The position numbers were made by a program, and so were the translations under genes. The notes beneath the pieces were generated by a model. That model saw nothing but the letters and a program-made list of their open reading frames with translations. It had not been told where the DNA came from and did no database searches. A DNA stretch of 64,000 bases, taken from Candidatus Levyibacteriota bacterium (GTDB lineage: Bacteria; Patescibacteriota; Microgenomatia; Levybacterales; UBA12049). Shown here piece by piece: positions 28,315 through 44,267 of this stretch; the first letter of the stretch is position 1, and every line of letters begins with the position of its first letter. The stretch is taken from contig CP066685.1 in NCBI GenBank assembly GCA_016432345.1, forward strand, positions 304,236-368,235. The letters run 5' to 3'.

Positions 28315-29652
28315 ATGCAAAGAGTTCTTATTGCGGAAACTGTTGGTTATATAGATAGGGAAGTTTTAATTAAGGGTTGGATAAAAACCAGACGGGACCA
28401 TGGGAAGCTAATTTTTTTGGATGTTAGAGATAGGTCTGGAATTGTTCAAGTAGTTATAAATCCTCATGTTTCTCAAAATGCGTATGAGCAAGGACAAAAA
28501 CTGCGGTCGGAGTTTGTGGTTGAAATTATTGGAAAAGTTAACAAACGACCGGAAAAACTCGTTAACCCAAAGCTCGAAACAGGCACTGTCGAAATTGAAG
28601 CAACTGCGATAGCCATTCTGGCAGAAGCAGATGTCTTGCCTTTTGACTTAGATCAGCAAGAATTAAATTTAGAATTGCCAACACTGTTGGATTTTAGATC
28701 ATTAACTTTACGCCATCCCAAGCAGCAGGCGATTTTTGCCGTGCAGGCGGCGCTTGCTGCAGGGTTTAGAAAAGCAGCAGAACAACTTGGTTGTACCGAA
28801 ATTGTGGTACCAACAATTGCTATTTCTTCAACAGAAGGAGGAGCCGAAGTTTTTGCAGTTGATTATTATGGACATAAAGCATTTATGACCCAAAGCCCGC
28901 AATTATACAAACAAATGATGGTGCCAATCTTTGAGCGGGTTTGGACAATTGCCCATGCATATCGCGCTGAGCCATCAGTTACTACAAGACATTTGGCAGA
29001 AACTACACAGCTTGATTGCGAGCTGGGATTTGTAAATTTTGAAGAATTGTTAGATAGTTTGGAGCAAGTCGGGATGGAAATGGTTAGTTATGCCCAAAGT
29101 AAGTGCCAAGATATTTTTACAACATACAATTTGGAAAAAGTGCCTTCTGGCAAAATTCCAAGACTTACTCTACGGGAAGCGCAAGAGGTGATTTTTAAAG
29201 AATTTGGCCGAGACGGAAGAAAAGAAAAAGACTTAGCGCCGCAGGACGAAGTGGATATTTGCAAATGGGTCAAAGAAAAACATCATAGCGATTTTGTAAC
29301 AATTACCCATTTTCCAACAAAAGCCAAACCGTTTTATACCATGCCAGATCCTAAGAATCCAGAATACTCATTAAGTTATGATTTGTTATTTCGAGGCGTT
29401 GAGGTGTTAAGCGGTAGTCAGCGAATTAACGATTATGAGATGCTGGTTGCATCTATTAAAAACCGTGGCATGAATACCAAAGATTTTACCATGTATTTGC
29501 AGGCATTTAAATATGGTATGCCGCCTGAAGGAGGATTTTCGTTTGGACTGGAACGAATGACTATGAAAATTTTTGGGCTCTCAAATGTTAGGGAAGCAAG
29601 TCTTTTTCCAAGAGATATGGAACGAATTGATGAGAGATTATCGCGCATTTGA
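28315..29652 (+). CDS. aspS: Aspartate--tRNA ligase (short archaeal/type-2 form, possibly non-discriminating)
   Basis: OB-fold N-terminus (GWIKTRRDHGKLIFLDVRDRSGIVQVV) and class II motifs FRAEPS, GSQR and GGFSFGLERM. 445 aa, lacking the bacterial insertion domain. Confidence 0.9.
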   Translation: MQRVLIAETVGYIDREVLIKGWIKTRRDHGKLIFLDVRDRSGIVQVVINPHVSQNAYEQGQKLRSEFVVEIIGKVNKRPEKLVNPKLETGTVEIEATAIAILAEADVLPFDLDQQELNLELPTLLDFRSLTLRHPKQQAIFAVQAALAAGFRKAAEQLGCTEIVVPTIAISSTEGGAEVFAVDYYGHKAFMTQSPQLYKQMMVPIFERVWTIAHAYRAEPSVTTRHLAETTQLDCELGFVNFEELLDSLEQVGMEMVSYAQSKCQDIFTTYNLEKVPSGKIPRLTLREAQEVIFKEFGRDGRKEKDLAPQDEVDICKWVKEKHHSDFVTITHFPTKAKPFYTMPDPKNPEYSLSYDLLFRGVEVLSGSQRINDYEMLVASIKNRGMNTKDFTMYLQAFKYGMPPEGGFSFGLERMTMKIFGLSNVREASLFPRDMERIDERLSRI

Positions 29653-35938: not shown

Positions 35939-36577
35939 ATGACAACACGACATAAAATAGAGCTTGAGACAATATCTTTTGTTTTTTTGGCAGCATTTTT
36001 AAGCAGCGTTGTTGTTTGGCAAAGTAATAAAAGTCTAAAAGATTGGTTTTATACATCGCTTCCTTTTAATGCGTCAAATAAAACAGATACTGTTGTTACG
36101 CCTGTGCCAGGTCCAAAAGTTGACATTGCATCACAAACTTCTCCTGATGGGGTAAAATTGCTTACTATGAAAAAAACCCACAATTCTGACTCGACTTTTA
36201 CTTATGTGTTTACAACATCCGACCAATCAGGTTCTAATCAAAAACAAATATACACCGTAAAAGCAGCAGAACCACAAACGTTTGGTGTGCCATATAATGC
36301 TTGGTCTCCAGATAACAAATATGTATTTATTCAAAAAAATGGAAGAGATGCTCTTATTTTTAAAGCAAATGGAGAAGAAATAGGTCCAAATCAAATGTAT
36401 TTTGATGTTGAAGATAATTTTGTGCAAAAAGGGATAAAAAATAAACTTTCAGAAGTAACAGGTTGGGCTTCCGAAACTCTTGTAATCGCTAATACATTTA
36501 CACCCGAAAATAACAAAATTTCGTATTGGTTTGAAGTACCAAGCAAAGCAATTATCCAACTTTCTTCTCAATTTTAA
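35939..36577 (+). CDS. Hypothetical membrane-anchored protein
   Basis: ORF 35810..36577, with the likely start at ATG 35939, 1 nt after the upstream stop. It has an N-terminal TM helix. I recognise no family. Confidence 0.5.
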   Translation: MTTRHKIELETISFVFLAAFLSSVVVWQSNKSLKDWFYTSLPFNASNKTDTVVTPVPGPKVDIASQTSPDGVKLLTMKKTHNSDSTFTYVFTTSDQSGSNQKQIYTVKAAEPQTFGVPYNAWSPDNKYVFIQKNGRDALIFKANGEEIGPNQMYFDVEDNFVQKGIKNKLSEVTGWASETLVIANTFTPENNKISYWFEVPSKAIIQLSSQF

Positions 36578-36579
36578 AT

Positions 36580-36639
36580 ATGGACAAAGACAATCAACTT
36601 CATAAAAAAGCATTAATGCTGGAATATTTTACCATTGGC
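36580..36639 (+). pseudogene. Possible 20-codon N-terminal remnant of a cation-diffusion-facilitator-type transporter gene
   Basis: Manual translation gives MDKDNQLHKKALMLEYFTIG. This resembles the ..ALxLEYFT(I/V)(G/A)WN.. N-terminal block of one CDF subfamily, from memory. After codon 20 the frame runs into the GC-rich element and stops at 36742-36744. Confidence 0.25.
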
Positions 36640-36665
36640 CGTTTACAGAAAATGTTGAATTTCAA

Positions 36666-36861
36666 TGTGTTAGCTCGGCCTTCGGCCTCGCTTGCTCCGG
36701 CGCGGCACCCCGACCCGCCGCGCCTCCGAAACTTATGTGTTTAATCTATGTTTGTCGTCTCGAACTACTTTTTATACGATCGGCGGCTGCGGGTTTCGTG
36801 CCTAAATCCTGGATTTTCCGTGCTCGCTGCGGCGAGCCCCCCAAACCTAAATCAAAACTTG
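36666..36861. ncRNA. Unclassified GC-rich structured RNA candidate adjacent to (3' of) tRNA-Gln
   Basis: A sharp G+C island in an AT-rich background. Perfect hairpins at 36822-36837 (6 bp), 36699-36724 (8 bp, 10-nt loop) and 36672-36692 (3 bp + 2x2 internal loop + 4 bp) flank an AT-rich centre (36731-36780). Strand is not resolved. Confidence 0.45.
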
Positions 36862-36932
36862 CTGCCGGGCTTGGATTCGAACCAAAATAAACGGATTCAG
36901 AGTCCGTTGTCCTACCATTAGACGACCCGGCA
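36862..36932 (-). tRNA. tRNA-Gln (anticodon CUG)
   Basis: Manual cloverleaf: TGCCGGG TC GTCT AATGGTA GGAC A ACGGA CTCTGAA TCCGT TTAT TTTGG TTCGAAT CCAAG CCCGGCA G. U1-A72, discriminator G, no encoded CCA. Confidence 0.9.
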
Positions 36933-36977
36933 CTGCGGCTTATTGTATCAAATCATCAGGTATGTTACAAAGTAAAC

Positions 36978-37541
36978 ATGAGAAAGCTAGATAAGCCATT
37001 ATTTTTTTTTGGTATTTTGCTTATTCTTGCTGGTTTGATTTGGAGCGTTGTTGTTCCAGCGCCTACTGTTGTTCAAAAAACGCCGTCTCCGGTTGCAACA
37101 AACTCTGCTGTTTTGGGAGCAAAAAATTACCAGGAAGCAGAGGTCATAAGAGTTGTTGACGGCGATACGATTCATATTCAGTTAGATAATAAAGAAGAGA
37201 TAGTGCGGTTTATTGGGGTAGACGCGCCAGAGGTTGTTGATCCGCGAAAAAAAGCGCAGTGTTTTGGTAAAGAAGCATCAAACTTTACCAAAAATATGCT
37301 AAACGGTAAAAAGATCATACTGGAAGAGGACGCATCACAAGGAAATAGAGATAAATACAATCGGCTTTTACGCTATGTTTTTTTAGAGGATGGCACAAAT
37401 TTTAATAAACTGCTTATCCAGGAAGGCTATGCCCATGAATATACATATCGTTTACCATATAGATATCAAGTAGAATTTAAGGAGGCCCAAAAACAAGCCG
37501 AAAGTCATAAAAAAGGTCTCTGGGCGGATAATGCATGTTAG
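36978..37541 (+). CDS. Thermonuclease (staphylococcal nuclease/SNase-like), membrane-anchored or secreted
   Basis: VVDGDTIHIQL...VRFIGVDAPE...RDKYNRLLRYVF...GYAHEY are the SNase catalytic blocks. It has an N-terminal TM helix. Confidence 0.88.
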   Translation: MRKLDKPLFFFGILLILAGLIWSVVVPAPTVVQKTPSPVATNSAVLGAKNYQEAEVIRVVDGDTIHIQLDNKEEIVRFIGVDAPEVVDPRKKAQCFGKEASNFTKNMLNGKKIILEEDASQGNRDKYNRLLRYVFLEDGTNFNKLLIQEGYAHEYTYRLPYRYQVEFKEAQKQAESHKKGLWADNAC

Positions 37542-42947: not shown

Positions 42948-44267
42948 TTATTCATATTTATGTAAAAAAGAGTTAAATACAGAACAGATATATTGGATGT
43001 GTTTTTCTTCTATACCTGGGTACAGACCAATAAAAAAAGTATTAGTAAATGTTAGGTTGGAATTTTCTAAACTTCCTATTTTTCGGTGTTTAATATTTTT
43101 ATATCCAGGTTGCCTTAAGATATTTCCAGCAAAAATTGGCCTGGTTTGTATCATATGATTTTCTATATAATTGGTAATGTAGAATCTGTCAAAAGGAGAA
43201 TCTTGTCTAATGGTTAATGGATAAGCAAACCAACTAGGATCTGATTTAGGCATAGCTTTGGGTAAAACAAAGTATTTTTCATATTTTTTAAAAAAAATTG
43301 AGTAAAAACCAAAGTTTCTTTTTCTAACTTTTATGAAATCAGCAGCTTTTTTTAGTTGTATTCGGCCCATGGCCGCCTGTATTTCGACTGGTTTTAAGTT
43401 ATACCCAATTTGGGAAAATATATATTTATGATCGTAAGGAATGTTGTCAATTTTAAACTTGAATCTTACTCCGCAAGTTCCATTTGGACCACTTTCAGCT
43501 GCGCCGCACCAGCAGGCCCTGCCCCATTCGCGAAGTGATTGAGTGATTTTTTGGAGTCTTAAATCATTTAAAAAAACTGCCCCGCCTTCACCTGCTGTAG
43601 TTATATGATGCGCAGGATAAAAAGACTGCGCCGCCATTATCCCAAAAGAGCCAGTTTTTTTACCGTTGTAGGTTGATCCAAAAGCATCACAATTATCTTC
43701 GATCACAAATAAATTATTATTGTTTGCAATATCCATTATTGCATCCATATCGTTAGGATTTCCTAGCGTATGAACAAGAAGTATTAGTCTTGTTTTTTTG
43801 CTGATGGCTTTTTTTATATCTTCTGCTTTTGGATTTAGCGTCTCCAAATCTATATCTACAAAAACTGGTTTTAGCCGGTGATGAACAAGGGCAGCAACTA
43901 CCGAGGGAAAGGTACAGGCGGGGGTAATTACCTCGTCTCCTGGATTTAAATGATTGGTAAATTGATAAGACATTAAAGAAGCAATTGCCAAAAGGTCTGC
44001 TGAAGAGCCGGAGTTAACTAAATATGTTCGTTTGGCTCCGATATAATCGGAAAGCTCTTTTTCTAACAACTCCCCTTCTGTTCCCAAACCAAACCATCCT
44101 TTTAACATTACATCAACCATGGCGTTTAAATCTTCTTCGTCGTAAACTGCGCCGGCATATCTTATGAGTGTTTTTCCTGGAATAAATTTGGAAGTGTTAG
44201 TTAAATGAAGATATTGTTTAACAAGAGCATGAATTTTTGACTTTATAGCTTCATTATTTTCATTCAT
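42948..44267 (-). CDS. rfbH: RfbH/DdhC-like PMP-dependent sugar dehydrase (DegT/DnrJ/EryC1 family; CDP-4-keto-6-deoxyglucose-3-dehydrase type)
   Basis: FIPGKTLIRYAGAVYDEEDL, NSGSSADLLA, SFYPAHHITTAGEGGAV, REWGRACWC and PSWFAYPLTI. This follows the RfbH block order as I recall it. Confidence 0.8.
   Translation of the reverse strand: MNENNEAIKSKIHALVKQYLHLTNTSKFIPGKTLIRYAGAVYDEEDLNAMVDVMLKGWFGLGTEGELLEKELSDYIGAKRTYLVNSGSSADLLAIASLMSYQFTNHLNPGDEVITPACTFPSVVAALVHHRLKPVFVDIDLETLNPKAEDIKKAISKKTRLILLVHTLGNPNDMDAIMDIANNNNLFVIEDNCDAFGSTYNGKKTGSFGIMAAQSFYPAHHITTAGEGGAVFLNDLRLQKITQSLREWGRACWCGAAESGPNGTCGVRFKFKIDNIPYDHKYIFSQIGYNLKPVEIQAAMGRIQLKKAADFIKVRKRNFGFYSIFFKKYEKYFVLPKAMPKSDPSWFAYPLTIRQDSPFDRFYITNYIENHMIQTRPIFAGNILRQPGYKNIKHRKIGSLENSNLTFTNTFFIGLYPGIEEKHIQYICSVFNSFLHKYE

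Follow-up and report, generated by a model that had tools for sequence, protein, structure and literature searches.

Recognised mobile elements are few in CPR bacteria (Patescibacteria), whose genomes are tiny. Most known serine integrases target protein-coding genes, and to our knowledge they act at sites of about 40–50 bp without conserved structured modules beside them. Mini-hairpins with GNA triloops (the GCGAAGC type) are very stable, and the 3' external transcribed spacers of tRNAs can act as small RNAs, as is the case for 3'ETS-leuZ of E. coli. For islands that target tRNA genes, the tycheposon preprint reports partial tRNAs, remnants and a minority of elements with large serine recombinases.

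Our analysis concerns a GC-rich element of about 225 nt that lies directly 3' of a tRNA-Gln gene in the 64-kb stretch of DNA analysed here (the window). We put the probability at about 70% that it derives from a CPR island family at tRNA-Gln and lacks the recombinase, be it as a decayed remnant or as a miniature version. The conserved element looks like the leftover of a mobile island rather than a housekeeping RNA gene. The family appears to be undescribed: Rfam, collections of cultured phages and plasmids and the searchable literature, including work on CPR structured RNAs and islands, yielded no account of it. The general kind, site-specific tRNA islands with remnants, is known.

A GC-rich element behind tRNA-Gln

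The first-pass annotation had placed an element of about 200 nt at positions 36666–36861. The island 3' of tRNA-Gln is real, but its 3' limit is 36636 rather than 36666, since the flanks of homologous copies diverge only beyond the tail of a conserved module. The features of the element, all on the minus strand, are collected in Table 1. Its two GC-rich blocks, previously judged by eye, have a G+C content of 0.767 (36670–36729) and 0.60 (36790–36849), compared to 0.357 for the entire window. This makes the element the strongest non-coding GC island of the window. Only two other places contain 50-nt segments with at least 66% G+C (28711–28760 and 43483–43545), and both are inside long ORFs (28315–29652 on the plus strand and 42948–44267 on the minus strand). 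The element itself is non-protein-coding, as had been proposed.

The three hairpins described earlier are present exactly where they were reported. Read on the plus strand, they are GCTCGC-tgcg-GCGAGC (H1 in Table 1), GGCGCGGC-10 nt-GCCGCGCC (P4) and AGC-tc-GGCC-ttc-GGCC-tc-GCT (36672–36692, around P5). The window contains the 8+8 hairpin pattern a single time, and 100 shuffles do not contain it at all. The centre between the GC-rich blocks (36731–36780), which had been described as AT-rich and unstructured, is in part a 20-nt AT-rich insertion private to this copy.

As a whole, the region does not fold clearly better than shuffled sequence. Folding energies correspond to z-scores of −2.0 on the minus strand and −1.65 on the plus strand, and to −0.85 for the refined 227 nt. 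The signal of the element consists of local hairpins and homology, not of a global fold. Since the global folding energy is unremarkable, evidence for the element has to come from sequence comparison. A repeat search found neither terminal inverted repeats nor flanking direct repeats or a target duplication at the element ends, as a MITE or an IS-type transposable element would have.

Table 1. Positions of the features in and around the element at tRNA-Gln
Feature	Position in window	Strand	Remarks
Promoter-like site TTGTAA-17-TACAAT (with TG)	36942..36970	-	Just upstream of tRNA-Gln; consensus match only
tRNA-Gln, anticodon CUG	36861..36932	-	62.5 bits; ends ..CCCGGCAGC, CCA not encoded
Entire inserted element, ~225 nt	36636..36860	-	Homologous to units of L186 and L257 made up of tRNA-Gln, trailer, linker and module
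Trailer start AAGUUUUGAUUUAGGUUUGGGGGG	36838..36860	-	Diverged counterpart of the canonical CAGUAAAGAGAAGAAAGAGGUUGGGAGG found 3' of tRNA-Gln in occupied loci
Hairpin H1 GCUCGC-CGCA-GCGAGC	36822..36837	-	Same place as the canonical trailer hairpin GCGCUUUCCGCG..CGCGGAAAGCGC
Conserved block CAGCCGCCGAUC	36778..36789	-	Common to L186, L257, L057 and L067
Linker GUUCGAGACGAC (canonical GUUCGAGCCGAC)	36754..36765	-	Found ahead of the module in copies of the recombinase-proximal and L186 types
AT-rich insertion, 20 nt, window copy only	36734..36753	-	20-column gap against L186 and L257
Conserved module M (CGGAGG..P4..P5..tail)	36634..36733	-	nhmmer E = 6e-29 with the family profile
Hairpin P4, 8–9 bp GC stem	36699..36724	-	Loop takes hairpin insertions of 0–60 nt in other copies
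Hairpin P5 GCGA-GGCC-GAA-GGCC-GAGC	36673..36691	-	Tandem G.A mismatches, GAA triloop; optional in the module
AT-rich tail, degenerate in the window	36636..36672	-	Canonical UAAUCAAAUGAAGUUCGACAUUUUUYGUAAACSGCCAGC; putative element-side att half
Hairpin AGCAUU/AAUGCU (AGCAUUAAUGCU) plus six U	36604..36620	-	Probable native tRNA-Gln terminator

The minus-strand hairpin and U-run that had been noticed downstream are also real (AGCAUUAAUGCU and U6). They were missed by the terminator scan because the stem has too few G-C pairs. In the window they lie 16 nt past the end of the module, while in a syntenic relative (L001) the counterpart lies directly past the tRNA. Hence AGCAUUAAUGCU-U6 is probably the tRNA-Gln's own terminator, displaced by the insertion. 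P4 and P5 do not look like intrinsic terminators: neither is followed by a U-run, and the scan of the region called only the tRNA anticodon arm.

The window belongs to a Candidatus Levyibacteriota (CPR) genome, and the flanking nuclease and a 212-aa protein each have 100% matches under that name. The gene order around the locus, with tRNA-Gln (minus strand), SNase, DUF1003 and Lon to one side and YkuD and a 212-aa protein to the other, is kept in relatives. The element is absent 3' of tRNA-Gln in the syntenic relatives L001, L003 and L007, the last of which is the closest (a neighbouring protein is 70% identical). At this locus L007 has an unrelated 180-nt spacer after tRNA-Gln (L007:3148-3327, minus strand) with nested hairpins, UUCGACUCA..UGAGUCGAA around two stem-loops, plus CUGCCCGCUGUGGGUAGCAG. 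A further relative, L004, equals the window over the first 30 nt after the tRNA, including the trailer start, and then its contig ends.

Other insertions at tRNA-Gln are found as well, in the form of homing-endonuclease-type ORFs. L004:1-960 contains a LAGLIDADG-like ORF between the remnant 5' half of a tRNA and a complete, different tRNA-Gln. L257:3650-4375 contains a GIY-YIG-like ORF with a complete tRNA-Gln on one side and a duplicate of the tRNA 3' end on the other.

Six contigs of the same species from other runs are 100% identical to the window wherever they overlap the element. Four of the six, all from short reads (L328, L329, L333, L334), stop inside P5-P4, 116–136 nt past the 212-aa gene. 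Such breaks would be expected if P5-P4 occurred repeatedly in the community. Among relatives, several contigs (L008-L010, L013, L014) likewise stop at fixed distances past the 212-aa gene.

The module family and its islands

Conservation in other genomes, which the first-pass annotation had proposed to look for, was found in many CPR loci. A profile of the module, which is about 100 nt long, matches at least 170 copies in at least 131 public CPR loci (GTDB genomes and JGI metagenomes), and 37 of the 131 loci listed contain several copies. The window contains one. The order within the module is CGGAGG, P4, CYGGAGCAA, P5 and the AT-rich tail, and after the tail the flanks diverge. In a blastn search of INPHARED phages and PLSDB plasmids the complete module region had no match.

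A recurrent island architecture is observed in L177, L209, L211, L245, L260, L265, L266, L219, L233, L250 and L236, and in mirrored form in L057, L188, L227 and L278. The tRNA-Gln gene is followed by a convergent recombinase gene, an inverted module, 1–2.5 kb of cargo and a second module that is co-oriented with the tRNA. The recombinase-proximal module points toward the recombinase gene and is preceded by a conserved leader. The distal module abuts unrelated host DNA. A DNA-inversion switch for the inverted copies is unsupported, as the orientation of the recombinase relative to the tRNA is constant in all loci examined.

The island protein is 500–540 aa long and carries Resolvase, Recombinase and Zn_ribbon_recom domains, which identifies it as a large serine recombinase. 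It is 87–94% identical between contigs of different CPR lineages. Of the loci listed, 59 module loci contain a tRNA of any kind, and 46 of these contain tRNA-Gln. For 57 of 76 modules no tRNA is closer than tRNA-Gln, and in 59 of 61 module/tRNA-Gln pairs the module is located 3' of the tRNA. tRNA-Gln is thus the predicted integration target of the element family.

Both module copies of one locus carry common private variants. Whole hairpins vary between loci: insertions occur in the P4 loop, in the tail loop and in the stretch that separates P4 from P5. P5 is deleted exactly between two GAGC repeats in L229 and L173, it has its inner stem swapped with the GA/GA mismatches and GAA loop kept in L236 and L283, and it is longer in L212.

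Distal copies (L096:300-386, L052, L056, L075) and the copies of family B (L061, L128, L090, L093) frequently have a conserved 5' domain. Its order is GGGAG..UUUYCGCGCAYGGGYGGG.GGGGCAAG, an AU hairpin, a variable hairpin and AAAAUCGCGCGCGCAAAAAAUAG. The CUCGCCC of this domain could pair either upstream (GGGUGGG) or downstream (GGGCGAG), and in L096 a promoter-like sequence lies upstream of the domain.

The junctions of the islands suggest how the module might take part in integration (a slash marks the junction). In occupied loci the tRNA ends in ..CAGC and is followed by the trailer CAGUAAGAAGAAGAA..GGUAGCGCUUUCCG; the same trailer also comes after the recombinase-proximal module, which ends in ..GUAAACSGCCAGC. 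The trailer consensus is based on 26 tRNA-Gln junctions (..CAGC/) and 40 module junctions (..GCCAGC/). CAGTAA or CAATAA follows 34 of the 55 proximal copies compared to 6 of the 78 distal ones. The end of the tail, ..GCCAGC, also resembles the end of tRNA-Gln, ..GCAGC, and its GUUCGA motif resembles the T-loop.

A sister family shows a corresponding pattern at tRNA-Lys(UUU) (L085:3385-5304 and L283:6051-7638). Its recombinase is 57% identical, its modules have P5 ahead of a variable GC hairpin, and their tail is related. The tRNA-Lys junction ..CUCACCA/UUUUGGAAAUGG.. matches the module junction ..GUUCACCA/UUUUGGAAAUGG..; likewise, tRNA-Lys has the junction ..GGGCUCACCA/UUUUGGAAAUGGCAAG.., the proximal module has ..AAAAACGUUCACCA/UUUUGGAAAUGGCAAG.., and the DNA beyond the distal module is unrelated.

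From the tRNA-like tail end, the trailer common to tRNA and module and the pattern at tRNA-Lys, we infer that the module tail is the element-side half of an attachment site. By sequence logic, tail/trailer would be attP and the tRNA 3' end attB, and a crossover at ..AGC/CA.. would leave tRNA/trailer (attL) on one side and module/host DNA (attR) on the other. Neither a circular junction nor an empty site was observed directly. An attachment role of this kind would not explain the conserved GC hairpins, because an attP of about 50 bp is normally enough for serine integrases.

The window copy differs from the recurrent islands. It shares its arrangement with two of the loci listed, L186 and L257, where tRNA-Gln, trailer, CAGCCGCCGAUC, the linker GUUCGAGCCGAC and the module follow each other on one strand without a recombinase. 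This tandem arrangement accounts for 3 of the 170 module copies listed. The window aligns end to end with the units of L186 and L257, and all three have CAGCCGCCGAUC, the GUUCGAG.CGAC linker and an AGGUU.GGG.GG motif in common. The alignment with L186 and L257 shows the window's 5' hairpin to be homologous to the trailer hairpin rather than to the hairpin before AAAAUC of distal copies. A tblastn search of the 64-kb window with the recombinase of L057 found no match, and for this reason we class the copy as a recombinase-less derivative.

Divergence within the copy is uneven. The left 134 nt are 46–51% identical to L186 and L257, while the module is 82% identical to L186 and P4-P5 is identical at 59 of 62 positions. 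The tail is degenerate (GAAAUUCAAC, CUGU, GGCCA-AUGG), and so are both junctions (..GGCAGC/AAGUUUUG and ..GGCCA/AUGG): the canonical junction (..AGC/CAGUAA or CAGUAAAG) and the module end ..GCCAGC are absent in the window.

Taken together, the missing recombinase and the rare tRNA-trailer-module arrangement argue for a decayed or miniature island. According to this explanation, the island family inserts at the 3' end of tRNA-Gln by means of its large serine recombinase, and the window would keep both junction regions and the module with nothing between them. The recombinase would have been lost from, or never been present in, the 225-nt insertion between tRNA-Gln and its own terminator. Active recombination would not be expected, and the window copy is most likely inactive. 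One could argue against a relic that the tandem arrangement, with its 3 of 170 listed copies, could be an ancestral or a host state. The main observation that the relic model leaves unexplained is the high P4-P5 identity in a decayed copy. Unlike the decay of a pure relic, this uneven decay hints at constraint on the hairpins; gene conversion from copies elsewhere would be an alternative explanation.

Strand, fold and rival explanations

The strand of the element had previously been left unresolved. It can now be assigned to the minus strand from the co-orientation with tRNA-Gln, the promoter-like site, the terminator and stem variants of the G-U rather than the A-C type, which settles the ambiguity. 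Co-transcription with tRNA-Gln, also suggested earlier, we rate as probable given a promoter-like site upstream and a terminator after the element, with the reservation that the number of promoter-like sites in the region equals the shuffle expectation. Transcription probably starts at the tRNA promoter and runs on to the displaced terminator, so that the element would form a long 3' trailer. It is possible that P4 and P5 serve as terminator or insulator, protect an RNA end or form a regulatory leader of the recombinase.

Pairing was analysed in 112 distinct module copies for three proposed helices, which are paired in 95.5% of the cells; the count is biased for P5, since an exact P5 was required for retrieval. 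Variation in the stems is mostly from G-C to G-U on the minus strand. The closing pair of P4 is GC in 65, GU in 42 and AU in 3 copies, and one tail pair is GU in 51, GC in 34 and AU in 2. These variants show that the minus strand of the window is the sense strand; they are no proof of an RNA fold. Double changes occur in 3 of 21 pairs (6 cells), a pair count reached by 78 of 500 shuffles of these very similar sequences. Covariation in favour of an RNA fold of the module is therefore weak.

The first-pass annotation could not assign the element to a known RNA family, and neither can we. With Rfam 15, whose classes cover RNase P, SRP, 6S, tmRNA, riboswitches, ribozymes, introns and integrase-associated motifs, only the tRNA reached gathering score in the whole window. 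At E<=10 with relaxed filters nothing relevant was found in 36500–37000, nor, at the same E-value, in a canonical copy (L096:100-520). ARAGORN found no tmRNA at the element or in 22 related loci, and candidate frames for a tmRNA tag are broken by hairpin insertions that are not multiples of three. Resemblances to RNase P, SRP and hammerhead seen by eye are supported by no model.

It is therefore hardly credible that the element is one of the housekeeping RNAs (RNase P, SRP/4.5S, 6S or tmRNA) in a form too divergent for the Rfam models. RNAs of CPR bacteria are often divergent, and the element has what we take to be a 10-nt likeness to the CCGGAGCAAG stretch of RNase P. These points are outweighed by the Rfam and ARAGORN results and by an element that is multi-copy, sometimes inverted, located beside recombinases and absent from close relatives. 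The same distribution, together with a dispensable hairpin, weak covariation and an AT-rich tail that behaves like half an attachment site, speaks against the earlier view that the GC island is a functional, stand-alone cellular RNA gene.

P5 by itself is found far beyond the CPR islands. Its minus-strand 19-mer, GCGAGGCCGAAGGCCGAGC, occurs in 35 viral stretches and has more than 120 matches among the GTDB genome stretches listed. The 22-mer formed by the 19-mer and TAA occurs in at least 120 JGI metagenome stretches. In GC-rich genomes the 19-mer stands alone, inside other palindromes or tandem arrays, whereas in AT-rich CPR loci the similarity around it extends for about 100 nt. A sibling hairpin, GCGAGCGCGAAGCGCGAGC, has 38 viral matches and GCGACCGGGAACCGGGAGC has none; an exact search of viral contigs for the other two hairpins of the window found no match either. 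The P5 19-mer belongs to a hairpin type that is generic and very widespread. We found no literature match for its sequence, and an Rfam search of the hairpin in 13 viral loci was also without a match.

The contexts of the 19-mer are diverse. In Gemmatimonadales/Longimicrobiales it forms tandem arrays with a 25-nt period, in which the hairpin alternates with a 6-nt spacer (given as cccctct) and some units are degenerate (L081:2054-2224, L142, L102, L110, L160). In alpha-proteobacteria it is nested in longer palindromes (L059, L070, L094, L099, L105, L109, L119, L122, L132, L143, L150, L153), the Rhizobiales-type form being CCUCAUCCUGAGG-x-19mer-x-CUCGAAGGAUGAGG. The nested form of haloarchaea (L055, L063, L098, L108, L111, L168 and others) is CCGCGA-19mer-GAGCGG followed by a T-run. 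A family of phage contigs from IMG/VR sample 3300045988 (L018-L020, L023, L024, L031, L033, L034, L036, L038, L040, L043, L045), and also L133, has a conserved motif of about 75 nt, GACAAGUGGGCGUGCAACCUCCUGCCCCACCGGGGA-19mer-CGCACAAGUUGUUAC, in an AT-rich intergenic position, with variants in L022 and L039. Contigs of giant-virus MAGs (L015, L046) contain two to three copies per locus within repeated intergenic units, and in L046 the 19-mer adjoins other GC hairpins with GAAG loops.

The wide spread of this hairpin raises the question whether the element is just a cluster of GC-rich hairpins, REP- or terminator-like, in an AT-rich spacer that has only the 19-mer in common with island modules. 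The 19-mer does occur alone in the 35 viral and more than 120 listed genome stretches, in contexts as unrelated as REP-like palindromes, haloarchaeal terminator-like sites and 25-nt tandem arrays. Its sibling is equally common, and whole hairpins come and go in the module. Against this, the homology reaches beyond the hairpin: the nhmmer match (E = 6e-29) is 100 nt long and takes in the AT-rich tail, L186 and L257 can also be aligned with the linker, CAGCCGCCGAUC and the trailer start, and the position 3' of tRNA-Gln is common to the family. The profile match and the alignment largely refute a generic cluster, which we regard as very improbable.

A more serious rival is a structured non-coding RNA with a function of its own. 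It could be a cellular RNA derived from the tRNA-Gln transcript, or it could be encoded by the island, for example as a regulatory leader or terminator of the recombinase or as an RNA taking part in recombination. The window copy would then have been kept for the use of this RNA. Such an RNA would account for the near-identity of P4-P5 next to flanks that fell to about 46%, for 77% G+C persisting within a genome of 36%, and for G-C/G-U/A-U variants that make sense on the minus strand only. It would also fit the P5 of L236 and L283, where mismatches and loop survived the swap of the inner stem, hairpins at the same position that differ in sequence and yet pair (family B and the hairpin before AAAAUC), large P4 insertions that are tolerated only in the loop, and a promoter-like site and terminator that bracket the tRNA plus element. 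However, the number of pairs with double changes is reached by 78 of 500 shuffles, P5 has been deleted precisely in two loci, and folding z-scores are unremarkable. The element is missing from close syntenic relatives, and its distribution and copy number track the mobile island. High identity may also reflect recent horizontal spread, as the recombinases are 87–94% identical too. We consider a functional RNA unlikely, but the least unlikely of the rivals. A bolder version is a long shot: the module, together with the conserved 5' domain of distal copies and of the tRNA-Lys sister family, could represent structured RNAs of a new class that the islands encode and that act in the recombination cycle, with a tail that mimics the end of the target tRNA, and the window copy could be retained because the RNA still serves the tRNA-Gln transcript. 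Such an RNA might control recombinase expression via the inverted upstream copy, or help in site choice.

Implications and comparison with known systems

Two families of serine-recombinase islands, with tRNA-Gln and tRNA-Lys as fixed targets, appear to be widespread in CPR bacteria. The analysis gives predicted attachment sites for new large serine recombinases, adds a conserved GC-rich non-coding module to CPR islands, and accounts for two features of CPR assemblies, contig breaks and a class of GC-rich "orphan" islands between genes. It also advises caution: GC-rich islands in AT-rich genomes can be scars of mobile elements and not cellular RNA genes.

Like 3'ETS-leuZ, the element is a non-coding stretch between a tRNA and its terminator and probably part of the tRNA precursor. 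It differs in that its sequence originates from a mobile element and a trans-acting role is not in evidence. With REP/BIME palindromes and the GCGAAGC-type mini-hairpins it has in common that P5 is a GC stem with a GAA triloop, and the identical 19-mer is found inside alpha-proteobacterial REP-like palindromes, haloarchaeal intergenic sites and tandem arrays. Unlike REP/BIME sequences, the window element is a single-copy mosaic of 225 nt with conserved AT-rich parts and a fixed place after tRNA-Gln, and no RAYT-type transposase context was seen.

The recombinase has the Resolvase, Recombinase and zinc-ribbon domains of phiC31, Bxb1, TnpX and SCCmec Ccr, and as in these systems a putative attP lies beside the gene and the core identity of attP and attB is short. 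Compared to known serine integrases, the CPR islands stand out by the conserved GC hairpins of the module and the tRNA target, with att sites assigned here by inference from sequence.

The closest likeness is to islands that target tRNA genes (Prochlorococcus tycheposons and islands of the Islander/TIGER type). There, too, a recombinase gene lies beside the tRNA 3' end together with a sequence that resembles the tRNA end, cargo is variable, insertions can be tandem or nested, and recombinase-less remnants occur. In contrast to these islands, the repeat of the CPR family is a 100-nt module of two GC hairpins and a tail instead of a partial tRNA, and the tail mimics only the last 6–9 nt of the tRNA and a T-loop motif. 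Intact CPR islands also carry a second, inverted module-plus-trailer upstream of the recombinase, and their hosts are CPR bacteria.
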